64,000 nt of DNA from Acidobacteriota bacterium. Lineage in GTDB: Bacteria; Acidobacteriota; Vicinamibacteria; Vicinamibacterales; CAVVIG01. Positions 6,087-32,711 of this stretch are shown here, piece after piece. The stretch covers positions 1,556-65,555 of the forward strand of contig JAGWRA010000280.1 in assembly GCA_028876655.1 (NCBI GenBank), in the 5' to 3' direction. Position 1 is the stretch's first letter. Each line of letters begins with the position of its first letter. The position numbers and the translations under genes are program-made. Below the pieces are notes generated by a model. It saw only the letters and a program-made list of their open reading frames with translations, was not told the DNA's origin and did not search any database.

Positions 6087-6223
6087 GCCGCGCACAGCAG
6101 ACGATGCGTGCTCTGCCGGCATTCTGGTGCTACGGTTATCCCCTGGGCTGACGCCCGGCGTGCCGGCGCGCGGAGGTCGCGTGCCGGAAGCCGCCGGTCG
6201 GGCCGGAGATGCATGGTGAACCG

Positions 6224-7288
6224 ATGAAGACGTTATGGATCCTGCTGGCGGCGGTCGGCCTGTCCGCCGGGCTGTCGGCTCAGAACAAGGCGCCCCTCAC
6301 ACTCGTGCAGACGTTCCCCCTGCCGGCGACCGTGAAGGGGCCGATCGGCCGGCTCGGCGTGGACGTCGCCGGCCATCGGCTCTTCCTCCCGGCTGAAGAT
6401 GCGCACGCGGTTCTGGTGCTCGATCTCCGCACGGGCGCGCTGCTGCACACCATCGGCGATCCCGGCGGGCCGCGCGCCGTTCTCTTCCGCGCCGACCTCG
6501 GCAGTCTCTACATCGTCGACGGGAGGACCGGCGAGGTGAAGGTCTACGATGCCGGCTCGTACCGCGAGGTGATGTCGACACGGCGGACCCTTGGGGCTGC
6601 GGTCCCTGTCATGCCGGATGCCCGTGACCTCGGCTACGACCCGCGAACGAAGCTGCTTTACGTCACGAGCGCCGGCGCCGAGTCCGATGCCAAGGGCAAG
6701 GCTGCCAGGGACAAGAAGAAGACGTCGCTCCTGAACATGGTCGATACCTCCACCGGCTACAAGGGCTCGGACCTGGAGATTGACGGTGACGCGCTGGGGG
6801 CGATGGCGCTCGAGACGAAGGGCCCGCTGCTCTACCTGAACAACCCCGCCAAACACGAGATTGACGTCATCGATCGCGTCAACATGGTCCTCAAGGCGAA
6901 ATGGCCGGTGACGATGGGCCAGGACAACCGGGCGATGGCGCTCGACGAGGCGTCACACCGGTTGTTCGTCGGCTGTGCCAGCGGAGCGGTCGTCGTCTTC
7001 GACACGAAGACCGGGACGGAGATCAAGGCGCTGCCGATTCCGGCGGGGATCGACGATCTGGCTTTCGATCCGCAGACCCGTCGGCTCTACGCGTGCTGCG
7101 GCGGCGACACGGGAACGATTGACGTGTATCAGGAGAAGGACGGCGATCAGTTCCAGTCGCTCGGCCGCGTGGCGTCCGGGCCGGACGCGGGATCCGCACT
7201 CCTCGTGCCCGAGCTGCACCGGTACTTCGTGTCAGTGCCGGCGCACGGGAACGAGCCGGGGAAGGTACTGGTGTATCAGGTGCCGTAG
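6224..7288 (+). CDS. secreted beta-propeller repeat protein (YncE/YVTN-like)
   Basis: Signal peptide MKTLWILLAAVGLSAGLSAQN. Repeated blade-like segments (LYIVDG, LLYVTSAG, LLYLNN, RLFVGC, RLYACC, VLVYQV). Confidence 0.7.
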   Translation: MKTLWILLAAVGLSAGLSAQNKAPLTLVQTFPLPATVKGPIGRLGVDVAGHRLFLPAEDAHAVLVLDLRTGALLHTIGDPGGPRAVLFRADLGSLYIVDGRTGEVKVYDAGSYREVMSTRRTLGAAVPVMPDARDLGYDPRTKLLYVTSAGAESDAKGKAARDKKKTSLLNMVDTSTGYKGSDLEIDGDALGAMALETKGPLLYLNNPAKHEIDVIDRVNMVLKAKWPVTMGQDNRAMALDEASHRLFVGCASGAVVVFDTKTGTEIKALPIPAGIDDLAFDPQTRRLYACCGGDTGTIDVYQEKDGDQFQSLGRVASGPDAGSALLVPELHRYFVSVPAHGNEPGKVLVYQVP

Positions 7289-7404
7289 GAAGGGAGAACC
7301 CGCCTTCGCGGCTGCACCGCTTCGGCGCGCAACCTTCTCAGGTGAGCGTGAGCGGGGGTTGGCTTGCCAACCGAAGCTCGCGCCGGTTACGCGCGAGCGA
7401 AGGT

Positions 7405-7427
7405 TGGCGGAGGGAGAGGGATTCGAA
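7405..7427. repeat. island-distal att direct repeat (copy of the tRNA-Ser 3' end)
   Basis: TGGCGGAGGGAGAGGGATTCGAA is identical to 32622-32644 in the same orientation. No tRNA body is adjacent. Confidence 0.85.
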
Positions 7428-8045
7428 GGCTGTTAACACACCTGTTTTCAATAATTTACAGAACTTTTAATAATCCAGACCGGCCGAAATCGCTCAAAAA
7501 TCGCGGGGCTGGGACGAAACTGGGACGGCAGAGAGACGGTGCGACAGAGCTCTACCGCATGGAGGTCGTCGTCTTGCGACCGTCGACAACTCCGCGACTC
7601 CCTCTCAAGGCGAGCGCTGGTGCGATTCGCGCCAACGCTCGGGTCCGCGCGATCGATAGCAAGCTGCAGACGAACTGTGGTGCTCGGCTGTTCGGTGATC
7701 TCAGCCAACCCGTCGGAGCCGGATGGACCGGCAACCTCTATGGCAGATTAAGTGAATCGGCCCACGTGCGGCCTGGACGCACATTGGGGGACACTTGGGA
7801 CAGCAACGGTCCATCTACGTCGGTGAGGCCGTTCGAGACCTTCACGAAATCTTCTTCGGAACCGTGTGCGCTGCGTGCGTTCTTGCTTATCTCGACCGCC
7901 GCTCTCTGAGGTTTCCAAAGGCCTTGGGTCGCTCTCTGGTCGCAACGGAGGTGTAGCCGACGGCAATCGAGTTGGTAGCACTATCCAAGGTCCGCTCAAC
8001 TAAGTTGGTCTTAGAGCGTTTCGAATGGTGTGCTAGACTCTGGAC

Positions 8046-8179
8046 GGACTCACCGGCAGATTTTGTGCCGCGTTTCGCGGCATTTGACGCCAACGCCACA
8101 CTCGCTGCTGCACATGTCGCAAGGCGATATGCGTGATATGTGCGCAGGCTGACTATCGCATAGGAGTGCCGGTGGGTCT
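8046..8179 (+). ncRNA. candidate retron msr/msd non-coding RNA
   Basis: 13-bp inverted repeat (8046-8058 GGACTCACCGGCA / 8167-8179 TGCCGGTGGGTCT; 11 WC + 2 GU pairs) as a1/a2. G at 8059 follows a1 directly. An msr-like hairpin lies at 8066-8082 and a longer hairpin at 8109-8144. The element ends 23 nt before the RT ATG. Prediction by eye only. Confidence 0.35.
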
Positions 8180-8202
8180 CTTCTCTATCCCCGCGTGCGC
8201 AG

Positions 8203-9990
8203 ATGTCCCGACTTGCCGCGCTCAAAGCCGCGAGCTCGCTGAACGCACTCGCCGATCTCCTAGACTTCAAACCCAAGGCTGTCTCATACATCCTTTATAA
8301 GATTCCGTCGAAGAGTAAGTACACGACCTTCGAGATTCCGAAGCGATCAGGCGGGCAGCGCACGATCAAGGCACCCACTGAGAAGCTGAGGAACCTTCAG
8401 CGTAAACTGGCCGATCTCCTTCAGGATTGCCAGTTGGAGATCGAGACGGCCCGACATCTCAACGATCGAACCGCGCACGGCTTCAAACGCGGGAAATCGA
8501 TCGTCACCAACGCCAGTCAGCATCGGGGCCGCCGTTGGGTTCTCAACCTTGACCTCCAGGATTTCTTTCCATCCATCAATTTCGGACGAGTCCGAGGATT
8601 TCTGATCAAGAACCGCGACTTTGCACTCAACGCGAAGGTCGCCACCGTGATCGCACAGATCGCCTGCCACGACAACACGTTGCCCCAGGGCAGCCCATGC
8701 TCGCCGGTGATCTCCAATCTGGTCGCTCACGTGCTCGATATGCGGCTTGTGATGCTGGCCGGCAAGTTCGGGTGCACGTACTCGCGCTACGCCGACGACC
8801 TGACGTTCTCCACGAGCAAGAGGGAGTTCCCGGCCGAGATCGCCAAACCCCTCGGAGCCGAGGCTCCGGAGACTCACCTCTGGGTTCCCGGGGAGGCCCT
8901 GCACGGCGTTCTCATCCGCAGCGGCTTTGCGATCAATGCAAAGAAGACGCGATTCATGTATCGACGCTCCCGCCAAGAGGTCACCGGTCTGACCGTGAAC
9001 AAAAAGATCGGCGTTCGATGGCGGTACCGCCACGATGTCCGGGCGATGGTTCACAAGCTGGTGACCAAAGGGCAGTTTGAGGTTCTCAGCACCGTGGTCA
9101 AAGATGGCGAGCCGACGCTGGAAAAACGGCCGGGCACGCGCCCGGAGTTGCACGGCATGCTCGGATTCATCGACAGCATTGACGTCTTCAACGCGAAGCT
9201 CGCTGCGGCCCTCAGAGGAGCAAAGCGCCCCTATCGAAGCGTCTCACCGAAGGCGCCAGAGCAAGAGTTCTCCTCAAGGGAGGCAGTCTATCGTCAATTC
9301 CTCATGTACACGACGTTCTATGCTCCGTTGAAGCCCGTGATTCTCTGCGAGGGCGACACCGATAACGTGTACCTGAGGCTCGCCATTCGCCGCCTTGCTG
9401 CTGACTTCCCTGAACTGGCGGAAATCACAAAACAGAAGATTGTCGTCCCGAAGGTGAGAATCTACAAGCACCCTAAGTCAAGTACCACACGCTTGCTCGA
9501 TCTCGGATCGGGTGGATACGCTCCGCTTGGCAACTTCATGTCAAGGTACAAGAAGGAGACTGCACATTTTGGCCCAGGGCTGACCGAGCCGGTGATCGTC
9601 GTCTACGACAACGACAGCGCCGGAGGCCAGCTGCGCAACAAAATAAAGGGGGAGTTCAAGGTCGCGTCGGACGGCACGGAGCCCTTCATCCATATTTTCA
9701 AGAACATCTACGCGGTGCCCATTCCGTTTGGACCAAATGCAGCGCCGACTGAGATTGAGGACTTGTTCGACGCAGCAACAAAGGCGACGAAGCTCAAGGG
9801 CAAGAGCTTTTGCTCCGAGAAGAACATCGACGAGGACACCCAATACAGCAAGAGCGCCTTCGCCAAGGAGGTCATTGCCGCGAACGCCGGCAAGGTCGAC
9901 TTCAACGGCTTCAGGCCGTTGCTCACCAATGTCGCGGCGGCAATCAGGGCGCACCAAAAAGCGGTCATCGAGCCGTCGCCGAAACCCTAG
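8203..9990 (+). CDS. retron-type reverse transcriptase fused to a C-terminal Toprim nuclease domain (Ec67/Retron-Eco2 family architecture)
   Basis: RT motifs IPKRSGGQRTIKAP, NLDLQDFFPSI, LPQGSPCSPVISNL, YSRYADDLTFS, VTGLTVN. The C-terminus has Toprim-like acidic motifs VILCEGDTDNVY and VVYDNDSAG. 595 aa. Confidence 0.85.
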   Translation: MSRLAALKAASSLNALADLLDFKPKAVSYILYKIPSKSKYTTFEIPKRSGGQRTIKAPTEKLRNLQRKLADLLQDCQLEIETARHLNDRTAHGFKRGKSIVTNASQHRGRRWVLNLDLQDFFPSINFGRVRGFLIKNRDFALNAKVATVIAQIACHDNTLPQGSPCSPVISNLVAHVLDMRLVMLAGKFGCTYSRYADDLTFSTSKREFPAEIAKPLGAEAPETHLWVPGEALHGVLIRSGFAINAKKTRFMYRRSRQEVTGLTVNKKIGVRWRYRHDVRAMVHKLVTKGQFEVLSTVVKDGEPTLEKRPGTRPELHGMLGFIDSIDVFNAKLAAALRGAKRPYRSVSPKAPEQEFSSREAVYRQFLMYTTFYAPLKPVILCEGDTDNVYLRLAIRRLAADFPELAEITKQKIVVPKVRIYKHPKSSTTRLLDLGSGGYAPLGNFMSRYKKETAHFGPGLTEPVIVVYDNDSAGGQLRNKIKGEFKVASDGTEPFIHIFKNIYAVPIPFGPNAAPTEIEDLFDAATKATKLKGKSFCSEKNIDEDTQYSKSAFAKEVIAANAGKVDFNGFRPLLTNVAAAIRAHQKAVIEPSPKP

Positions 9991-10223: not shown

Positions 10224-11588
10224 TTAGTCGCCCATCTTGAAGATCTCGAGCAGGTCCCTCAGGGCGATCTCCGCCCGGACACACATTCGGTCGAAGGCTT
10301 CCTCTATCTCCGGATAGTCCTCTCGGTGCACAGCAGTGTTCATCGCGTCGATAGTCTCGATAGCAGAATCCAGCTCCGAAACCATCATGTCGCGGTAGTC
10401 CTTGTTCTTCAGCGACCGACAGAGCCACCGCACCTGTGCGGCGCGCGTCGGCTCCCCCTTGCTCGAGAGGTACTTCTTGTCCGGGCCGCCCGCGAGCACG
10501 CGATCCCTCGGCGCGATAGCATCCAAGGTCTCGATGAGCACATACCGCAGCGAGGAGGAGGCCTGCCGCACCCAGTCACTCTCGCGGCGCCTGACCGTCG
10601 CCAGACCGGCTCTCCACGACACCAGGAGCGCCGGGCGGATGCGCGGCAGCGTCGTCTCGATGATGCTGGTGGTCTCCTCTCGCACCTCGCTCCAGATCTC
10701 CACGACCGGCTCATCGCCGGTGTGAGTCGTAATAGCGCGCACAACGCGCGCGTGCGAGTACACCGCGAGCGCGGGCACCTTGGCCATGAATGGCGCATCG
10801 ATAACGGGCTCAGGCGCCAGGGCTGTGGCCTCAGCGTACCGGGCGTACGCCGTGTTCAGGCGAAACGATTCGAGCTGCAACGCCTCCGGATTCACGACGC
10901 CGATCCGATCTCCGAGCGACTCCCAACGCACCGTCGCCGCGACAAGCTCGGCGGCGCGTGAGACCGCCTCGATATGGCGGAAATTCTCGGCGAAGCGGGT
11001 GAGATCGATGGGCCGGAACATCTCCACAAGGCGACCGGCGCTCAAGCTCAAATCGATCGGTTTCAATTGCTCGGCGACATGCCGCACGACATCTGTAGCC
11101 GCCTGCGTGGTCGCGCAACATTCGGCGGCGAGCTTTTCCACGCCGGTTACGAACTCTGCAGAGAATATAGAATGCGCGAGCACGTTCCGTGCGAGCGCGA
11201 GGGACTCGCCCATCTCGCGCATCATCTTGTCCACGCGGTCCCGTTGCACCATGAACTCACGAACGGCCGACGAATCGAGCGCACGCTGCACGGCGTCCCG
11301 CTCCTCGAGGATCCTCTGAATGGCGGGACTGACCAGCGCTTCGATCTTCCGCGCTTCCATGGCCTCCCGCGCCATCGACGATCGCTCCAGAAGCACTCGC
11401 ACGGCCTCTTCTCCTTCACGGAATGCGAGGAGCGAGGCAGGGTCGATGATGTCGCGCAGCTTTTGCTGCTGTTCGCGGATCATCCGCTCGGTTTCAGGCT
11501 CGATCAGATGTCGCACCTCCTTGAGGTGCTGCTCCATCTCGCGTCTTGCGCGGAGGATGCGCTGCTTCTCCTCATCGGAGACGGTCAT
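10224..11588 (-). CDS. hypothetical protein: coiled-coil N-terminal region plus a conserved-looking helical C-terminal domain
   Basis: Start moved to ATG 11588 (MTVSDEEKQRIL), which is preceded by AAGGGG. The charged helical N-terminal half is rich in E/R/Q. The C-terminal ~120 aa (VRQASSSLRYVLIETLDAIAPRD...PTRAAQVRWL...DAMNTAVHRED...ALRDLL) recalls predicted nuclease domains from conflict systems; unverified. Confidence 0.6.
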   Translation of the reverse strand: MTVSDEEKQRILRARREMEQHLKEVRHLIEPETERMIREQQQKLRDIIDPASLLAFREGEEAVRVLLERSSMAREAMEARKIEALVSPAIQRILEERDAVQRALDSSAVREFMVQRDRVDKMMREMGESLALARNVLAHSIFSAEFVTGVEKLAAECCATTQAATDVVRHVAEQLKPIDLSLSAGRLVEMFRPIDLTRFAENFRHIEAVSRAAELVAATVRWESLGDRIGVVNPEALQLESFRLNTAYARYAEATALAPEPVIDAPFMAKVPALAVYSHARVVRAITTHTGDEPVVEIWSEVREETTSIIETTLPRIRPALLVSWRAGLATVRRRESDWVRQASSSLRYVLIETLDAIAPRDRVLAGGPDKKYLSSKGEPTRAAQVRWLCRSLKNKDYRDMMVSELDSAIETIDAMNTAVHREDYPEIEEAFDRMCVRAEIALRDLLEIFKMGD

Positions 11589-11629
11589 AACGAAGTACCC
11601 CTTGCCACCTAGCGCTCCCGTCTTGCCGA

Positions 11630-11890
11630 TCAGTCTACGAATACAACACGCCACGCGATCCCCGTCGACGAAAGGGCCCGCTCCCCACCCGGAAGTGGGC
11701 TCCAAGATTCGCGGGCGGCGGCGTTTCCTGCCGTTTGAGGGTCGCCTTCCGGAACGTCTGCTTCAGCCAGCGGCGGATACGCCGCGTCCCGAACGAGCCC
11801 TGCACGCAGATGGGGCAGGTTCACGTTGATTCGCCGCGGTTGGCACTCGAAAGCGGTCAGATAGAACCTCGGCACGAAGTGGTGCTTGTT
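11630..11890 (-). pseudogene. possible DUF4238-family gene remnant
   Basis: The minus-strand frame reads NKHHFVPRFYLTAFE directly after a TAA stop. HH(Y/F)VP(Q/R)FYL is the N-terminal signature I associate with DUF4238. There is no ATG, and similarity decays after ~35 codons. Confidence 0.3.
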
Positions 11891-12374
11891 TTAGGCATCT
11901 CCCCCGTAAGCTTCCCCGTCAAGCGGACAGTTCGAAAGGAGACTGCGCCGCCGATGAAGGCCAAGCATTTCTGTGAAGTTCGACACGAGAGGATCCCGTG
12001 CGGCGGCGGCGTCATACGCCTCGCCTCGCTGGAAAGGTCTGGAATATGTGGCCGCAATTATAGGCAGCGCAAAAGGATCGCGCAATTCTCAACTATGGCC
12101 ACCCGTGGGAGCGGCCGGTCCCTATGCTGCTGGCCGAGACTCTCACACAGACCGAGGGCGGCGCTCCAGGACGGGGGCGAGAGTCCTGAAGGCACGAGGT
12201 CCCTGAGGATTCACGGCAGGTTGAGAGCATTGTTCGCGCGAGAAGGGCCTGAAGACGGCGAGGAGGCGGCGGGCAAGGAGCGGACACAGGGTATAATTAA
12301 ACTGCTACAATCAACGCATAAAAGCGCTTGATGATGTGTAGTTGTACCCCCTATTGCCAGATCAAGGAGTTCAC

Positions 12375-13199
12375 GTGCCCGCCCGCGACAAAGCTGCAAT
12401 CGCCGCCCTCGCCAAGGCCTCAAGGACGGGGCTCATCACCGTCGAGGCTGCCGCCGGGGTCTTGGGGATTTCACCACCCGCGGCTTCGGCCCGCCTGGCC
12501 CGACTGGTCCGTTCAGGCTGGGCGGCCCGAGTCAGGCGGGGACTCTATCTGATCCTCCCGCTTGAAGCCCAACCGGGCCAGAAGGTGACGAGTGAGGATC
12601 CCTGGGTCCTCGCGCGCGAACTCTTCTCGCCCTGCTACGTCGGCGGCTGGAGCGCCGCCGAATACTGGGGGCTCACTGAACAGCTGTTCCGGACAACGCT
12701 CGTCGTCACCGCGGCGGCCGTCCGCCGCGGAAAGGCCTCCTTCCTGGGAAACGAGTTCCGCCTCTACCTCGTGGACCCAAACCGCTTGGCCGAGGGCGTT
12801 GTTGACGTCTGGCGCGGCAACGAGCGCGTGCCCGTTTCCAGCCGGGAGCGCACGCTCGTCGACTGCCTCGACGCGCCGGAGCTCTGCGGCGGCGTCCGCC
12901 ACCTCGCGCAACTACTCCGTGAGTACGCCGACGGCGGCAAGAAAAACATACCCTGCCTGCTCTCCGTTGCGGAGAAGTGCGCCTCCGGGGCCGGCTGGAA
13001 GCGCCTGGGTTTCCTCTCCGAACTACTCTGGCCGAAAGAGGCTGCCGTTCAGCCCGTTGCCCTGAAGCACATCTCCGCCGGCAACGCTCGCCTCGATCCT
13101 GCGGTCCACCAGCGAGGGCGGCTTCGCAAGCGTTGGCGGCTTTGGTTGAACGTCGACCTGCATGAATTCACTCCAGGCGAGGGCCAGACCACCACATGA
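12375..13199 (+). CDS. abiEi: type IV toxin-antitoxin system AbiEi-family antitoxin
   Basis: wHTH N-terminus (TGLITVEAAAGVLGISPPAASARLARLVRSGWAARVRRGLYLILP). GTG 12375 is preceded by AAGGAG (12364-12369). The stop overlaps the downstream ATG (ATGA at 13196-13199). Confidence 0.8.
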   Translation: MPARDKAAIAALAKASRTGLITVEAAAGVLGISPPAASARLARLVRSGWAARVRRGLYLILPLEAQPGQKVTSEDPWVLARELFSPCYVGGWSAAEYWGLTEQLFRTTLVVTAAAVRRGKASFLGNEFRLYLVDPNRLAEGVVDVWRGNERVPVSSRERTLVDCLDAPELCGGVRHLAQLLREYADGGKKNIPCLLSVAEKCASGAGWKRLGFLSELLWPKEAAVQPVALKHISAGNARLDPAVHQRGRLRKRWRLWLNVDLHEFTPGEGQTTT

Positions 13200-14614
13200 T
13201 TCGCAAGCAGGACATCCTCGACCGGGCGGCGGAGTGGCAGCTCAGGCCGGAAGTCGTCGAGAAGGACTACGTCCTCGGTTGGCTCCTCGCGGGTCTTGCC
13301 AGCCTGCCCCTTCGCGAGCATTGGATATTCAAGGGTGGGACGTCGATCAAGAAGTGCTACTTCGAGACGTACCGCTTTTCGGAAGACCTGGATTTTTCTC
13401 TCCTCCCGCAGGCGGAATACGGCGAGGAGGGCCTTCGGGCGAATCTGCACACACTCGGCGCGCGAACGAGCGAGCTCAGCGGCCTGGAATTTCCGCCGGA
13501 CGCCATCGTGCTCCGCGAACGCCGGAACCGTCAGGGCCAGCCGACCTTCGAGGGGCGCGTCGGCTACCGCGGTCCACTGGTCTATCCAGGTACGCCGAAG
13601 GTGCTCTTCGACCTCACGCAACACGAAGCAGTGGTGGAACCGCCAGCGGACCGCCCGATACTGCACCCCTATCCCGACGACTTGCCTGAAGGCGCGGCAG
13701 TCCGTGCGTACTCGTTCAACGAGTTGCTGGCCGAGAAGACGCGTGCTCTCTTCGAGCGCCGCCGCCCGCGCGACCTCTACGATGTCGTTCACCTCCTGGA
13801 AAACGCCCCCGGTTATCTCGACCTGGCGCGGGTCCGGGAACTCTTCAGGCGCAAGTGCGAGAACAAGGGATTGGTTCCGCCGACCGCAGCGCTCCTGGCG
13901 GCCGCGGTAGATGGCGACGCGGAGATGCGGTCCGAGTGGAGCAACATGCTCGCGCACCAGCTTCCCGCTCTGCCGGATCTCGACGCAATGCTGGGAAAGC
14001 TACCGGGGCTTATCGGCTGGCTGGACCTTGCAACGCCGATCGCCTTGCCGGAGTCGCGCCTCGCGGCGGCGCCGATTCCGGCGCGTGAGGCGCCGATCGT
14101 CGCACCCGGCATCAGATTTTGGGGTTCGGGGTCGCCGCTCGAAACGATCAGGTTCGCTGGCTCCAACCGACTTCTCCTGGAGTTCGACTATCACGGGCGG
14201 CACCGCGTCACCGAGCCATATTCCGTCCGCCAGGCAGCCACGACGGGGAACGTGTTGCTCTACGCCTGGGAAATGGCGGCGGCGCATGTCAAGGCCTTCA
14301 ACCTTGCGGACATGCAGAACGTCCGGGCCAACGGCGAGGTGTTCTCTCCTCGGTACCGCGTCGAGTTCTCAGAATCCGGACCAGTCCAGATCAATCCCAA
14401 CGCGACCAGAGCTCGGCCGGCATCCACCCTACCCCGGCTCGGCACGAGCCGACGCACACCAGCCCGATTCGGCCCTCGGTACGTTTTTGAATGCCCGTAT
14501 TGTCAGAAGAGATTCACGCACAGCACGAATGCCTCGTCACTTCGCAAACACAAGCGCGCGGATGGCTGGGGCGATTGCCCTGGCCGCCAGGGGTACCTCG
14601 TCGAAGTCCGATAG
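13196..14614 (+). CDS. abiEii: AbiEii/AbiGii-family nucleotidyltransferase toxin with a ~190-aa C-terminal extension (WYL-like + zinc-finger-like)
   Basis: NTase motifs FKGGTSIKKCY and RFSEDLDFS with the DUF1814-like core in residues 1-280. Residues ~316-391 are WYL-like (RVTEPYSV...GNVLLYAW...VKAFNLADMQNV). Residues 431-461 read FECPYCQKRFTHSTNASSLRKH...C. Confidence 0.85.
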   Translation: MIRKQDILDRAAEWQLRPEVVEKDYVLGWLLAGLASLPLREHWIFKGGTSIKKCYFETYRFSEDLDFSLLPQAEYGEEGLRANLHTLGARTSELSGLEFPPDAIVLRERRNRQGQPTFEGRVGYRGPLVYPGTPKVLFDLTQHEAVVEPPADRPILHPYPDDLPEGAAVRAYSFNELLAEKTRALFERRRPRDLYDVVHLLENAPGYLDLARVRELFRRKCENKGLVPPTAALLAAAVDGDAEMRSEWSNMLAHQLPALPDLDAMLGKLPGLIGWLDLATPIALPESRLAAAPIPAREAPIVAPGIRFWGSGSPLETIRFAGSNRLLLEFDYHGRHRVTEPYSVRQAATTGNVLLYAWEMAAAHVKAFNLADMQNVRANGEVFSPRYRVEFSESGPVQINPNATRARPASTLPRLGTSRRTPARFGPRYVFECPYCQKRFTHSTNASSLRKHKRADGWGDCPGRQGYLVEVR

Positions 14615-24976: not shown

Positions 24977-26311
24977 CTACTCGACGTCGAGCACGATCTC
25001 CAGCGTGGAGGATCCGTACTCTGCGAACCAGGCGAGGCGTTCGACAACGAGGTCGAACACCGCAACGTATCGACCCGGATCGATGATCGCCGGCAGCGTG
25101 ACCGCGACGTCCGCCTGTTCGCCCGGAGCAACACTGGCAGACAAGTCAGCCCTGTGCCAATCGAAGTTCACCAAGGCTCGCGAGCCGGTCGCATCCTCCT
25201 TCAGAAGGTGGACACCGAGGCGAGTCCAGCCACGTCCGTCACGCGGCAACGCCAACCAGTTGGTGTCACCATCATTGGTGATGGAGACGGCGAGCGCAGC
25301 CGCCTCTCCGCTGCGAAGATGCAGGATGTGGTCAGGGCGTGGGGTGCTGATTGTCGCCTGCAGTCGTCCAGGACGCGTGGTATCGGGTGCGGTCCGTCGT
25401 TTGTAGAAGAGCAGGTAGTGGTGCCGCTCAAGCGCGCCCGAGAATCGCCTCCAGTACAGTGCAAAGTTCTTGCCCCCGCAGAAGGCCGCGAGGTCGAGGG
25501 CAGGGATTTCGAAGGGGTGTCTTGCGCCGGCGACGACCACATGAACGTGCGTGAAGCCGCATGCCAACGCGAGCGCAACCAAGTCCTCCAAGACCAACTC
25601 GTTCTCGAGTATGCCGGTCGAGGCCTCCATGCGGGATTGCTGATGTTCGCCGTGGCCCCGTCCAGGCTCGGACATACCGAGGACCCCGTCGGGCTTGAGC
25701 ACGCGGCAGATTTCGTGGAGTACCTCACCCTGATTGGGAATGTGGTGAAAGGCATCGCTAATGATGGCGCGATCGCAGGAGCCTGAGTCGATCGGTAGCG
25801 TGTGTCCATCGTAAGCGATAAATTGAGGCCGAAGGTCCCAATTAGTCGCAGGATCGCGTTGGAACAACTGCCGCCCGATTTCGAGGGCAGTCGGGGAGAC
25901 ATCAACCGAAATCGTGCGGCAGCCGTAGCGATTCAGCATCTGCGAGAGCCAGCAGCTGCCGGCACCAAGTTCGACGACTGTGTCGCCAGCTTGAAGGTTC
26001 AGCGCTTGCAGGAGCACGCCGGTGTCGATTAGGTGAAGCGCCGCGGTGGCCGACTCGCTGAACGGCTTTCGCAACAGAAAGTCCTTGTTCGCGAAGTCCG
26101 CATAGTAATCTTCCGCGGCCCTGTTGTATGCCTCCGTGCGTGCGACGAGTTCAGGCGCCTCGATCGGCGAGCCGGTGCGGGCCTTGAGTTTGAATGGCCA
26201 CAGCATCGTCCGGTACAGGGGATCCAGCAGAGCAAGCACGAGGCACTTGCTGGCCGGCCAGCGATGGAGGACCCGATGGCCGAGTTCATGTAGGTAACGT
26301 TGGGCTGGCAT
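24977..26311 (-). CDS. class I SAM-dependent methyltransferase with C-terminal beta-rich domain
   Basis: VVELGAGSCWLSQMLNRYGCRTISVDVSP ... DRAIISDAFHHIPNQGEVLHEICRVLKPDGVLGMSEP, followed by ~150 extra C-terminal residues. Confidence 0.8.
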   Translation of the reverse strand: MPAQRYLHELGHRVLHRWPASKCLVLALLDPLYRTMLWPFKLKARTGSPIEAPELVARTEAYNRAAEDYYADFANKDFLLRKPFSESATAALHLIDTGVLLQALNLQAGDTVVELGAGSCWLSQMLNRYGCRTISVDVSPTALEIGRQLFQRDPATNWDLRPQFIAYDGHTLPIDSGSCDRAIISDAFHHIPNQGEVLHEICRVLKPDGVLGMSEPGRGHGEHQQSRMEASTGILENELVLEDLVALALACGFTHVHVVVAGARHPFEIPALDLAAFCGGKNFALYWRRFSGALERHHYLLFYKRRTAPDTTRPGRLQATISTPRPDHILHLRSGEAAALAVSITNDGDTNWLALPRDGRGWTRLGVHLLKEDATGSRALVNFDWHRADLSASVAPGEQADVAVTLPAIIDPGRYVAVFDLVVERLAWFAEYGSSTLEIVLDVE

Positions 26312-26428: not shown

Positions 26429-27280
26429 GTGTTCAACGCTACAAGAAAGCCCGCGCGCCCCATGTGGCGCCGAGTGGCCAGCCGCACTCGTCGGGCCGTC
26501 TACCGCCTGGCCACCCCACTGGACCGAGTGCTGCGCCGGTCGAAGGACCTGCTGCTACCGCCGGCGCATCTCCGCCTTTACTACTACAACAGCTTGGCCC
26601 CGGAGGCGTTTGCCCAAGCGTGCCGAAATACCCGGGCGGAATTGATGACTCGTGGTTTGCAGCCGCAGCATCGCGTTCTCGACATCGGATCCGGGATCGG
26701 GAATCTGGCCATCGGGTTGGTTGATTATCTGCAGGGCGGCTACGATGGCGTGGAGATCCACCCAGAGGCCGTGGCATGGTGCCAGCATCACATTACACCG
26801 CGCCACCGGGCGTTTCGCTTTCACCGAGCGGATGTCGAGAGCAGCGCCTACAATCCGAGTGGGCGTGGGTCGGCCACGATGTACCGCTTTCCATTCCCCG
26901 ATCGAGCTTTCGATTTCATCGTCCTCGCTTCAGTGTTCACGCACATGTTTCCTGAGCAGGTGGAGACATACCTTCAGGAGATTGCGAGGCTACTCGCGCC
27001 CGAGGGAAAGTGCCTGGCGAGCTTCTTTCTTCTGAACGATGAAACACGAGCCGGCGTCGAAGCGGGCCAGAGCTTTTTGTCGTTCCAAGTCAATCACGCT
27101 TCGGGATTGTGCCGACTGCACGATGCTGCGGTCCCAGAGGCCGCCGTCGCGATCGAAGAGCGGTTTGTGTTGGAATTGCTTGGCCGGACCGGTTTACGCA
27201 TTGCAGAGGCCCGCCGGGGTTCCTGGTGGCGTGGTACGGCGCACGACCAGGACCTGCTCACCATCGTGCTGAATTCCTGA
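26429..27280 (+). CDS. class I SAM-dependent methyltransferase
   Basis: RVLDIGSGIGNLAIGLVDYLQGGYDGVEIHPEAV ... FDFIVLASVFTHMFPEQVETYLQEIARLLAPEG. Confidence 0.8.
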   Translation: MFNATRKPARPMWRRVASRTRRAVYRLATPLDRVLRRSKDLLLPPAHLRLYYYNSLAPEAFAQACRNTRAELMTRGLQPQHRVLDIGSGIGNLAIGLVDYLQGGYDGVEIHPEAVAWCQHHITPRHRAFRFHRADVESSAYNPSGRGSATMYRFPFPDRAFDFIVLASVFTHMFPEQVETYLQEIARLLAPEGKCLASFFLLNDETRAGVEAGQSFLSFQVNHASGLCRLHDAAVPEAAVAIEERFVLELLGRTGLRIAEARRGSWWRGTAHDQDLLTIVLNS

Positions 27281-29281: not shown

Positions 29282-30793
29282 TTAGTTGTCTGGGCGCTGA
29301 CTGCCGTTCATCGGCCTGTCGGGCTCCTGTTCCATCGCGGTCACGGCCTGATCGATTAGAGCAACGGCTTCACGCTCACGTTGCAGATACGAGTAGGGCG
29401 AGAGTCGGATCCGTGGCGTTGCTGAACCGCGAGTCCACTCCACCGCGGCACGTTCCGCGCCGCTTCCCCGTCGCCGATTGAGAGGAAGACCGCTGCTCAG
29501 TCGCATGGAAAATAGGTCAAAATAGCGCCTTGCCGCAATCCCTACGAATGGGTTGAACTGCACCTTCTCGCACGCCTGAGGATTGTCAACCGCTATGCTG
29601 TCGTCGTGAAGTTCAAGGGCCCGACTCTTCGGATACGGTTCGACGTAAACCACTCTTGTGATTCCTGCTGCGACAATGTGCTTGGCGCAGTTGTGGCAGG
29701 GAAACGTCGTTGTGAACAGCGTCCCGTCTTTGACGCGGGTTCCCGAACGAGCACACGAAAGCAGGGCTTCCATTTCCGCATGAACTGAGCGCCCGAACTC
29801 GGTGAGGTCAGCGATTCTACTGTCAACAAGACACGCGCGTGCGTCCTCCGCTGTTCCTTCGGCCAAGCAGCCTGAAATTCTGGTGACGACATCCTCGATC
29901 ATTTCCGAGACGACTCTGTCGTTGGCATCAAATCCCCGAACGTGATCCCGCTGGTCGTTAGGGCCCGGCCAGTACAGGCCGCCACGGAATTTGGGGACGT
30001 CGTTCGCACCGGTCGCGATGACCTCGCCGTCTGCGGAAACCACAACTGCACCGACCTGTCGCGCCAGCTGAGCAGACCTGAGCGAGGCTGCATAGGCCAG
30101 GAACATCGAGTGCTCATCTTGGGTCGGCGTATAGAAGGGATTGCCGAATACGAGGTCAATGAATCGTGAGAGCTCGTCGTCTTTGCCTTCAGTTACAAAC
30201 ACGTCCGCCAAAGTGAAGGTGTCTCGGGTGTGCTGGCCGAGGGCGTCGTCAGCTTCGTCCTGGTCGCGCTCGAGGAGCTTCTTCGCTTGCTCCTCGCTAA
30301 CGCCCTTTCGTTGCATCAGGTAAGCAAGACGCTTGCTCGCTGGAGAGTAGACGCCTATGAGGAAGAAGCCGGTGCCGTAGACCCTGCGCAGAGTCTCAAC
30401 TTCTTCTGGGTGTTTGAGGCTGCGGAGCAGGTGGACGACACGCTCTTGTGGCGCGACGTCTTCACCACGTCGCTCGCTGATGGCCGATATCGCGTGGAGC
30501 GCGAGGATGTCGCCGCGCCCGGCTTGGTTTCTGAGTTTGTTGCCGAGACTCATCCTTGAATTGACGCGTTCGAACTCAGTGGCGCTGTTGATGACGACGC
30601 CGAGTTGTTCTGTGTGGAGCCGCTCCGCCAAACCGCTCAACTTGATGACGTTTGTGTCGTAGCCAAACTGTTTCAGGAAATCTGTGACCGTGGCTTGAAC
30701 CCGGTCGAAATCCGTGCCGGTCGGCGCGACCAACGCAAAGATGAGCTCGCCCTGAGGCAGCGTGACGACCTCGGCGAGCGTTCTCCCGGACAT
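29282..30793 (-). CDS. anti-phage dCTP/deoxycytidylate deaminase, AvcD-like (N-terminal NTPase/kinase-like + C-terminal CDA domain)
   Basis: C-terminal zinc-deaminase motifs HAEMEAL ... FPCHNCAKHIVAAGITRVVYVEPYPKS. The N-terminal ~200 aa (ELIFALVAPTGTDFDRV...) occupies the place of the P-loop-like domain. 503 aa from ATG 30793. Confidence 0.8.
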   Translation of the reverse strand: MSGRTLAEVVTLPQGELIFALVAPTGTDFDRVQATVTDFLKQFGYDTNVIKLSGLAERLHTEQLGVVINSATEFERVNSRMSLGNKLRNQAGRGDILALHAISAISERRGEDVAPQERVVHLLRSLKHPEEVETLRRVYGTGFFLIGVYSPASKRLAYLMQRKGVSEEQAKKLLERDQDEADDALGQHTRDTFTLADVFVTEGKDDELSRFIDLVFGNPFYTPTQDEHSMFLAYAASLRSAQLARQVGAVVVSADGEVIATGANDVPKFRGGLYWPGPNDQRDHVRGFDANDRVVSEMIEDVVTRISGCLAEGTAEDARACLVDSRIADLTEFGRSVHAEMEALLSCARSGTRVKDGTLFTTTFPCHNCAKHIVAAGITRVVYVEPYPKSRALELHDDSIAVDNPQACEKVQFNPFVGIAARRYFDLFSMRLSSGLPLNRRRGSGAERAAVEWTRGSATPRIRLSPYSYLQREREAVALIDQAVTAMEQEPDRPMNGSQRPDN

Positions 30794-30823
30794 GGCAGAA
30801 ATTGTAGGGATCCTCTTCGTTGG

Positions 30824-30872
30824 TTGACACACATTTCTGCGTCAGATATCATCAGATATCATTCGATATCTA
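30824..30872 (+). promoter_or_regulatory. sigma70-like promoter overlapped by three tandem 10-bp repeats with GATATC cores (candidate RHH operator)
   Basis: TTGACA (30824-30829), a 17-nt spacer, then TATCAT (30847-30852). Repeats are CAGATATCAT (30843-30852), CAGATATCAT (30853-30862) and TCGATATCTA (30863-30872). An AGGAGA RBS follows. Confidence 0.5.
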
Positions 30873-31471: not shown

Positions 31472-32536
31472 TCATTTGCCCCTCCAGGTCTTCCTAACCG
31501 CAGCGTCAAGCTGCCGTTGCCGTTCCTTCACCCACGGCGAGTAGTGCTTGAGCACGATCGCCGGCGTGTTGCCAAGAAGAACCGCGACGTTCTCGACTGA
31601 GACGCCCCGCACGAGCAGGGACACAGCAAACGAGTCGCGGAACCGGTGGAAGTGCGCGTGCTCGACCTCGGCGAGCTTCGCGAGCAGGCCGAAGCTGCGA
31701 CGGACGTCCTCGATGGCGGATTTCGGCTTGGCATCGCCCGACCAGAACAAGTGGGGCTTGCCCGGCAGCTTCCGCAGCGCGGTCGTGACCTTCTTCGGCA
31801 ACGGCACGGAGACTGGGACGCCCGTCTTCTGGGTGTACAGAAATACCTTGTCGCCGACCAGGCGATCCCTGGTCAGAGCCACGGCGTCGGAAATGCGCAG
31901 GCCGGAGTGCCGCAGGAGCAGGACCAGCGCATAGAGACGGTCGCCGTTGCCTTTGAAGCGCTTGCAGGCGTCGAGGAGCCTCTTGATCTCGGCCTCGGAG
32001 AACGGCAGGGTCGGCTTGGGGGCCAGCCTGGGCGGCTTCAGGGCTCTGGCTGGATTCGAGACGATCCAGCCGGCGTCGGCGGCGAACCGGAAGAAAGCGC
32101 GCAAGGCCTCGAGCGTCTTGGCCTTCGTGGTCGGCGCATACGTCCAGGACTCGCGGAATTCGCGCAGCGCCTGCACGTCGAGCTGCCTCAACCGCCGCCG
32201 GCCGGTCTTCTCGCACCACGGCAGCAGCTGCCCGCGCAGGAACAGGCGGTACTTCTTGAGCGACGGCTCCTTCAGATCACGCGCTTCGCAGTCGGCTAGG
32301 TAGCGGTCGATCGCCTCGGGCAGCGTCGGGGCTTGAGCACGAATGACGCCGATTTCACCGGAGGCCTCCCAGCCCCGGACGATGTCCTGGGCTGCGTCCC
32401 AGGAGCGGAGTCCGAGCGATTTCTTGACCCACTCGCCCCGGAGTGTCCCCTGGACCCACAGCGGACAGTTGCAGCGGCGGTAGCGGCGGGATCGGTGCGT
32501 GCAGGGCGGGTAATGCCTCCGGTAGATCTGGAGCAT
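31472..32536 (-). CDS. tyrosine-type site-specific integrase
   Basis: SAM-like N-terminal domain and a catalytic C-terminus (LLLRHSGLRISDAV ... HRFRDSFAVSLL ... LLGNTPAIVLKHYSPW). Immediately adjacent to the tRNA-Ser 3' end. Confidence 0.9.
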   Translation of the reverse strand: MLQIYRRHYPPCTHRSRRYRRCNCPLWVQGTLRGEWVKKSLGLRSWDAAQDIVRGWEASGEIGVIRAQAPTLPEAIDRYLADCEARDLKEPSLKKYRLFLRGQLLPWCEKTGRRRLRQLDVQALREFRESWTYAPTTKAKTLEALRAFFRFAADAGWIVSNPARALKPPRLAPKPTLPFSEAEIKRLLDACKRFKGNGDRLYALVLLLRHSGLRISDAVALTRDRLVGDKVFLYTQKTGVPVSVPLPKKVTTALRKLPGKPHLFWSGDAKPKSAIEDVRRSFGLLAKLAEVEHAHFHRFRDSFAVSLLVRGVSVENVAVLLGNTPAIVLKHYSPWVKERQRQLDAAVRKTWRGK

Positions 32537-32621
32537 GCTCCATCGTCTCACCAGAGGGACGAAATTGGAACGATTGACTATTGATGAGCAGAAATAGTCA
32601 ATTAAATCAGGGCTGAATTAG

Positions 32622-32711
<90 letters not shown>

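Follow-up and report, generated by a model that had tools for sequence, protein, structure and literature searches.

Does the DNA directly upstream of a reverse transcriptase (RT) gene in an Acidobacteriota genome encode the noncoding RNA (ncRNA) of a retron, and if so, where exactly and of which kind? A preliminary description of the window, by which we mean the whole 64,000-nucleotide stretch analysed, had predicted a retron msr/msd RNA upstream of the RT and had allowed for other placements of it within 7428–8202. We found the prediction supported by homology to the Ec67 ncRNA, by covariation and by a covariance model (R1) built from related loci, and the question of placement is answered by the model, which has a single match at exactly 8046–8179. 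It is thus very probable that this segment is the msr-msd ncRNA gene of a type I-C (Ec67/Eco2-family) retron, with a single RT–Toprim protein encoded 23 nt downstream. The two genes of the predicted retron are:

8046–8179, plus strand: complete retron ncRNA gene (msr-msd), a1 through a2, as predicted from the sole R1 match in the window and a full-length alignment with the Ec67 ncRNA.
8203–9990, plus strand: retron type I-C RT fused to a Toprim nuclease, 595 aa, identified with PADLOC, Pfam, PDB and Ec67 BLASTP comparisons.

The ncRNA precedes the RT on the same strand and there is a single protein gene, the next family-supported ORF (pP_pnuc_1, 10224–11705) lying beyond the RT on the opposite strand. 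The PADLOC model RT-Toprim_I-C matches the protein over its full length (E 7.9e-214), Pfam RVT_1 is present (E 1.6e-24), and the Ec67 chains 9i2f and 9lm3 of the PDB match at E 2e-132. In a full-length BLASTP alignment the protein is 42% identical to the Ec67 RT as translated from an E. coli genome, and NCBI lists an identical protein, from an Acidobacteriota MAG, under the name 'retron Ec67 family RNA-directed DNA polymerase/endonuclease'. Alignment with the Ec67 RT locates the YADD motif (196–199) and the retron-specific NAXXH (103–107, N103-A-S-Q-H107) and VTG (260–262) motifs, all named in PMC12405507. The C-terminal Toprim domain contains motif IV, EGxxD, as E383-G-D-T-D387 and motif V, DxD, as D469-N-D471. 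Residues E383, D387, D469, and D471 align with Eco2 E374, D378, D460, and D462, the positions changed in the Eco2 variant with a catalytically dead Toprim (PMC12916289), and F43, R53, and H284 correspond to F46, R56, and H281, the residues of Eco2 that contact RNA (PMC12405507). The EGxxD and DxD motifs are consistent with subtype I-C1 or I-C3 as defined by Mestre et al. (PMC7736814). The next-best PADLOC matches, retron types XI and XII (RT-protease and RT-TIR fusions), cover the RT part only (residues ~6–340, E 1e-99 to 5e-104), whereas the C-terminal effector here is a Toprim domain and only the I-C models match at full length.

The terminal inverted repeat of the preliminary description was recovered both by direct reading and by an independent repeat search. 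Its arms, a1 and a2, form 13 base pairs (11 Watson–Crick and two G–U) around 108 nt, the right arm ends 23 nt before the RT start codon (ATG at 8203), and the spacing is near that of Ec67, as had been suggested, with 105 nt between the Ec67 arms. An inverted repeat of equal quality, at a spacing of 60–220 nt, was found in 18 of 300 dinucleotide shuffles of 7428–8202 (p ~0.06). Since 6% of shuffles hold its equal, the repeat taken alone is only suggestive, and the retron assignment was decided by comparative evidence.

For this comparison the Ec67 ncRNA sequence was verified at 100% in 14 complete E. coli genomes, where it lies directly upstream of the Ec67 RT. Positions 8046–8179 of the window align along their whole length with this experimentally defined RNA. 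A metagenome scan with the RT gave 80 loci of 38–84% identity, and in the closest relatives the conservation upstream of the RT begins sharply at a -10-like element and runs through a2, with none further upstream. A GATTT motif lies ~120–165 nt before the RT start in 50 loci; the 13 nt that precede it can pair with a 13-mer 100–133 nt downstream, and that 13-mer always directly follows the motif GC..A.GAG, so that a2 is anchored independently of the search for complementarity. The ncRNAs were assembled into an alignment of 42 sequences (A3), with the window and Ec67 included, and R1 was built from 40 sequences, the window and its closest relative (L001) being left out.

Searched against all 64 kb on both strands, R1 gave one match, at 8046–8179 on the plus strand (90.2 bits, E 5.8e-23, model positions 1–134 of 134). 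Just upstream of the RT and on the same strand, R1 also matches at 74 of the 80 metagenome loci and at 77 of 80 named-genome loci, which were found separately and none of which was used to build the model (151/160 together). Titled records among the named genomes come from Acidobacteriota, Nitrospira, Gammaproteobacteria, Alphaproteobacteria, Bacteroidota, Gemmatimonadota, and Patescibacteria, and the recovered ncRNAs as a whole span many phyla (Acidobacteriota, Nitrospirota, Proteobacteria, Bacteroidota, Patescibacteria, and others). Five of the six metagenome loci that R1 misses come without upstream DNA. The sixth, L045 (Ga0255055_10002970, 1–205), is the only metagenome locus that has enough upstream DNA (205 nt) and yet no R1 match at E up to 0.001; its RT–Toprim homologue is 43% identical. 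Rfam at gathering scores over the whole window gave no retron family match, and at E up to 10 over 7250–8300 it gave no retron match either, the one hit being a chance-level sucA at 7327–7409.

Assigned by homology with Eco2 (PMC12405507), the predicted anatomy of the ncRNA and of the element just before it is as follows:

8031–8039, plus strand: extended -10-like element TGcTAGACT (TAGACT at 8034–8039), at the conserved start in relatives and a recurrent motif.
8046–8058, plus strand: a1, left arm of the terminal inverted repeat, GGACTCACCGGCA / GGACUCACCGGCA, pairing with 8167–8179 with compensatory changes.
8059, plus strand: predicted branching guanosine, whose 2'-OH would prime the msDNA; column invariant in 42/42 ncRNAs, Ec67 G15.
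8060–8064, plus strand: single-stranded AUUUU linker, AUUU being invariant in A3; equivalent to Eco2 ssRa (A16–U19), an element named in PMC12405507.
8066–8082, plus strand: msr stem-loop with a 7-bp stem (8066–8072 with 8076–8082) and a UUU loop; equivalent to Eco2 RSL, G20–U42 (PMC12405507).
8083–8094, plus strand: single-stranded msr 3' tail, placed by the Ec67 alignment; equivalent to Eco2 ssRb (G43–U51).
8095–8165, plus strand: predicted msd template, read leftwards from A8165 to ~G8095 (Ec67 A118 and G52) and containing the hairpin 8105–8147.
8166, plus strand: unpaired G between template and a2, opposite the branching G; column invariant in A3, Eco2 G119.
8167–8179, plus strand: a2, right arm of the terminal inverted repeat, TGCCGGTGGGTCT / UGCCGGUGGGUCU, pairing with a1 with covariation; the Eco2 a2 arm is positions 120–132.

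The columns that are invariant in A3 fall at the places of most consequence for this assignment: the A that ends a1 (in Eco2 the arm ends at A14; PMC12405507), the G of the Ec67 G15 column, the AUUU that follows, and, at the template start and first base of a2, GC..A.GAG-U, a motif (GC..A.GAG|U) that precedes a2 in 42/42 sequences. G8059, proposed earlier as the branch position from its place directly after a1, is therefore confirmed in position by an invariant column and by its alignment with Ec67 G15, which immediately follows a1 in that RNA and has been established by experiment as the 2'-5' branch point (PMC12916289, PMC12405507). We predict by this alignment that the 2'-5' branch would form at G8059.

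Covariation supports both helices. Across the 20 pairs of a1/a2 and the msr hairpin, 97.5% of cells in A3 pair and 17/20 pairs show compensatory changes, values reached in 0/500 shuffles; when the 3' partners are slid by 1–3 columns as a control, pairing drops to 25–40%, and RNAalifold recovers the same two helices unaided. In the independent set (77 loci, 76 sequences in alignment A5) 96.4% of cells pair and again 17/20 pairs are compensatory, this alignment having been fitted to R1, which favours the structure somewhat. Compensatory changes affect 11/13 a1/a2 pairs in A3 and 12/13 in A5, the outermost pair, 8046–8179, being the least conserved. For the msr hairpin they affect 6/7 pairs in A3, with 99.7% of cells paired, and 5/7 in the independent set; its closing G–C pair and last loop U are invariant. 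The comparison by covariance with Ec67-family ncRNAs that had been suggested as a check thus finds a1/a2 and the msr hairpin conserved in two sets of loci. A second msr hairpin (CAUUUG/CAAAUG), seen in close relatives, was considered as a family feature and rejected, there being no such complementarity in other clades or in Ec67.

Folding of the single sequence, also suggested as a check, gave a divided answer. The isolated 134 nt fold at -63.8 kcal/mol (z = -3.94), which 0/200 shuffles equal, and the minimum free energy (MFE) structure contains the a1/a2 stem and the msd hairpin. The long imperfect hairpin described earlier at 8109–8144 appears there as a hairpin at 8105–8147 with a core at 8110–8143. 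For the tight hairpin TGCCGCG-TTT-CGCGGCA at 8066–8082, the coordinates and the covariation hold, but the hairpin is absent from the MFE structure: its pair probabilities are ~0.18, and a structure that contains it lies 2.8 kcal/mol above the MFE. With longer flanks the fold z-score falls to -1.25.

Reading the msd by the same homology, in which templating in Ec67 begins at A118 and ends at G52 (PMC12916289, PMC12405507), we predict an msDNA of ~71 nt with dT1 from A8165 and an end at ~G8095. Its 5' end, the complement of A8165, would read TCCTATGCG..., and the whole is predicted as 5'-TCCTATGCGATAGTC...GTGTGGC-3', the ends of the 71-nt form being 5'-TCCTATGCGATAGTCAGCC...GAGTGTGGC-3'. The 3' boundary is the least certain coordinate in this report, because the window and L001 deviate from the consensus immediately 3' to the predicted termination point. 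Directly following the aligned termination G, both carry a C in place of the G of at least 90% of sequences, and neither forms the short proximal hairpin seen at this place in Ec67 and most relatives. In the preceding msr 3' tail (8083–8094) the window has GACGCCAAC against a family consensus of GAAACAAAT. Across the family this proximal hairpin (columns 53–59 with 65–71) is 61% paired, barely above slid controls, in an alignment that is out of structural register, and it is absent in the window. The msd part of the RNA has a z-score of -1.98 in the window, where the family mean is -1.0, the region not being alignable for covariation. Folded as DNA, the predicted msDNA is no better than shuffles (z = -0.52), which agrees with the G–U pairs of the RNA hairpin 8105–8147, as these become A–C mismatches in the cDNA.

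These deviations raise a further idea, that the window and L001 represent a sub-lineage in which the segment 3' of the termination point has been replaced, so that a shifted RT stop or altered caging would give an msDNA architecture unlike that of Eco2. Both have lost the short proximal hairpin as well as the G of 'AGG', which is otherwise nearly invariant, and have one long G–U-rich msd hairpin instead. We regard the idea as speculative and rather unlikely; if true, with a shifted stop or altered strand joining, the msDNA architecture of the sub-lineage, and perhaps its trigger specificity, would differ from that of Eco2.

The same deviations bear on a reading in which the locus is a genuine Ec67-family retron by descent that is now non-functional, decaying cargo of an island, making no msDNA or giving no defence. 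The window differs from the family consensus in the segment that follows the msr hairpin, the DNA hairpin of the predicted msDNA is weak, and the source is a metagenome-assembled genome. However, the RT–Toprim reading frame is uninterrupted over its full length, all catalytic and RNA-contact residues that were checked are in place, and the ncRNA keeps all invariant columns and scores 90 bits, within the 56–120 bits of the other loci. Moreover, the ncRNA variant is shared by L001, the nearest relative (84% identical in protein), which argues for selection. We consider decay improbable, and an intact type I-C retron remains our preferred reading.

Upstream of the predicted type I-C ncRNA, the -10-like TAGACT noted earlier is indeed at 8034–8039, with a gap to a1 of 6 nt. 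As part of the longer TGcTAGACT it belongs to a pattern, TGnTAnnnT, that ends 4–6 nt before a1 in 24/42 related loci, Ec67 included. A generic sigma-70 scan did not report TGcTAGACT at 8031–8039, since there is no good -35. We infer from the conserved motif that 8031–8039 would act as a promoter with transcription starting at ~8045–8047; with a start at ~8046, G8059 would be RNA residue 14 or 15, as in Ec67.

Another reading takes the inverted repeat and hairpins as a 5' leader (an attenuator, RNA thermometer, or translational operator) that regulates the RT only, with no reverse transcription. The element lies in the 5' untranslated region, ending 23 nt from the start codon, and no obvious Shine–Dalgarno sequence precedes the ATG, both of which would suit such a leader. 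Regulation alone would hardly explain the invariant G and the template-start motif, and reverse transcription from G15 has been demonstrated for the Ec67 RNA (PMC12916289), to which the element corresponds by base-for-base homology. We therefore judge a leader without reverse transcription extremely improbable beside an msr-msd gene. In the 23 nt at 8180–8202 no Shine–Dalgarno-like sequence was seen; the conserved AGGAG at 8162–8166 belongs to the msd template start and, lying 36 nt upstream of the ATG, is too far away to suit a ribosome-binding site.

The wider interval 7428–8202 had been described as having no credible ORF, and this holds as tested: five mechanical ORFs are present, none with a Pfam match at or above the curated cut-off, and small ORFs across 7364–8291 likewise have no Pfam support. 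The ~600 nt from the end of the island described below to the retron promoter (7428–8030) contain no family-supported ORF and have no similarity to the region upstream of the L001 retron; a near-perfect palindrome lies at 7611–7641. Just outside the island end, after the ORF 6209–7288, there is a G+C-rich and highly self-complementary element at 7300–7420. It gave an Rfam sucA motif match of 20.5 bits (gathering score 40, E 0.45); the element is probably a terminator or REP-like, and the sucA match is probably by chance.

An exact 23-nt direct repeat of the 3' end of tRNA-Ser(UGA) occurs at 7405–7427 and at 32622–32644 (minus strand). The fragment at 7405–7427 was not called by ARAGORN and was identified by exact repeat search. 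The repeats bracket ~25.2 kb (~7428–32621) of lower G+C content, 0.58–0.65 against ~0.70 outside, which contains:

10224–11705, minus strand: 'pPIWI-associating nuclease' domain protein (pP_pnuc_1), E 3e-10.
12342–14614, plus strand: AbiEi and AbiEii, PADLOC E 4e-70 and 7e-114.
24977–26311, minus strand, and 26429–27280, plus strand: two methyltransferase-like ORFs, PADLOC model mad2.
29282–30832, minus strand: dCTP-deaminase-type defence gene, PADLOC E 5e-164.
31472–32551, minus strand: tyrosine integrase, adjoining the tRNA.

This ~25-kb segment looks like an integrative island at tRNA-Ser with the retron at its far end, and the tRNA-Ser repeats, the integrase, and the AbiE and dCTP-deaminase genes suggest that the retron is cargo of an integrative defence island. 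The possibility that the inverted repeat arose by chance, or marks the ends of a small MITE-like mobile element, with no relation to the RT, is in keeping with this position at the island edge, with the frequency of equal repeats in shuffles and with other 12-nt repeats of 92% complementarity within the same 860 nt, but it is refuted by the single R1 placement in the window, by the independent covariation and by the conservation of sequence and covarying structure only beside RT–Toprim genes, at 151/160 loci in many phyla, and we give it practically no weight.

How would the predicted type I-C retron work? In Eco2, the 2'-OH of the branching G is the primer from which the RT copies the msd, and the resulting msDNA joins three RT–Toprim subunits and cages the Toprim nuclease; once the phage nuclease DenB or A1 has degraded this DNA, the Toprim domain is released and halts translation by nicking RNAs, tRNA acceptor stems among them (PMC12916289, PMC12405507). 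An Eco2-like mechanism is the most likely one here, since the catalytic and RNA-contact residues and the RNA elements are conserved. The extended -10 promoter at 8031–8039 would start a transcript at ~8046 that carries both the ncRNA and the RT mRNA. In this transcript a1 would pair with a2, as the covariation supports, and so place G8059 beside the first template base, A8165, while the RT would bind the msr stem-loop at 8066–8082 together with the conserved single-stranded AUUU and GAG motifs. Priming from the 2'-OH of G8059, the RT would then copy the msd leftwards to ~G8095, giving a branched, RNA-linked msDNA of ~71 nt. As in Eco2, the msDNA would hold three RT–Toprim subunits as a trimer and cage the Toprim nuclease, until phage DNA nucleases of the DenB/A1 type destroy it and the freed Toprim nicks tRNAs and other RNAs, so that translation stops. 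The locus may accordingly be read as one of anti-phage defence through an msDNA-caged Toprim RNase, a role we infer by analogy and for which the defence-island context is the sole support at this locus.

Among characterized systems the closest is Retron-Eco2 (Ec67) of E. coli, type I-C1, which shares the order of ncRNA then RT–Toprim on one strand with one protein gene. The likeness extends to the 13-bp a1/a2, the A-G-AUUU after a1, the branching G in the same column, the GAG before a2, the single msr stem-loop with the same closing G–C pair and loop U, and the extended -10 just upstream of a1. The proteins share the RT motifs YADD, NAXXH, and VTG and the Toprim motifs EGxxD and DxD, although their identity is only 42%. 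The a1/a2 and stem sequences are entirely different, though compensated, and neither the segment that follows the msr hairpin nor the msd sequence is related. The window forms a single long msd hairpin, without the short proximal hairpin of GGAGG/CCUCC type found in Ec67, and its predicted msDNA is ~71 nt against 67 nt in Ec67. The carriers also differ, an island at tRNA-Ser in an Acidobacteriota MAG here and a P2-like prophage in E. coli for Ec67. With Retron-Eco1 (Ec86), type II-A, the general mechanism is shared: Eco1 too has a1/a2, a branching G that immediately follows a1, and an msr loop of comparable form that a thumb histidine contacts (PMC12405507). Its RT domain is related (E 3e-31), but its effector is a protein of its own in place of a Toprim fusion, and its msr contains an additional stem-loop.

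A single consensus msr-msd structure for type I-C retrons has already been reported: for RT clade 8, Mestre et al. (2020) described terminal inverted repeats, a short msr hairpin, and a long msd stem-loop (PMC7736814). The window fits that consensus by its description, the model comparison here resting on our own R1. The predicted ncRNA at 8046–8179 is thus an ordinary addition to a well-studied family of one-protein anti-phage retrons, and knowledge of how retrons work is unchanged by it. Its main value is for annotation, as the protein is already 'retron Ec67 family' at NCBI while the ncRNA is missed by Rfam; new for this genome are the exact ncRNA coordinates, the predicted branching G, and the predicted 71-nt msDNA. 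R1 and the invariant nucleotides that it lists, which match RNA elements resolved in Eco2 cryo-EM structures, could seed a curated RNA family, and diverse type I-C retrons could be supplied for msDNA-based genome editing.

The comparison also bears on the annotation of Ec67 itself. In one E. coli genome (L081, NZ_CP045712.1, 2490–4430), the RefSeq CDS of the Ec67 RT starts at 2490 and runs across the whole ncRNA at 2501–2632, while the start of the 586-aa protein, which agrees with the solved structure, is at 2670. The RefSeq start therefore appears to be over-extended into the msr-msd gene.
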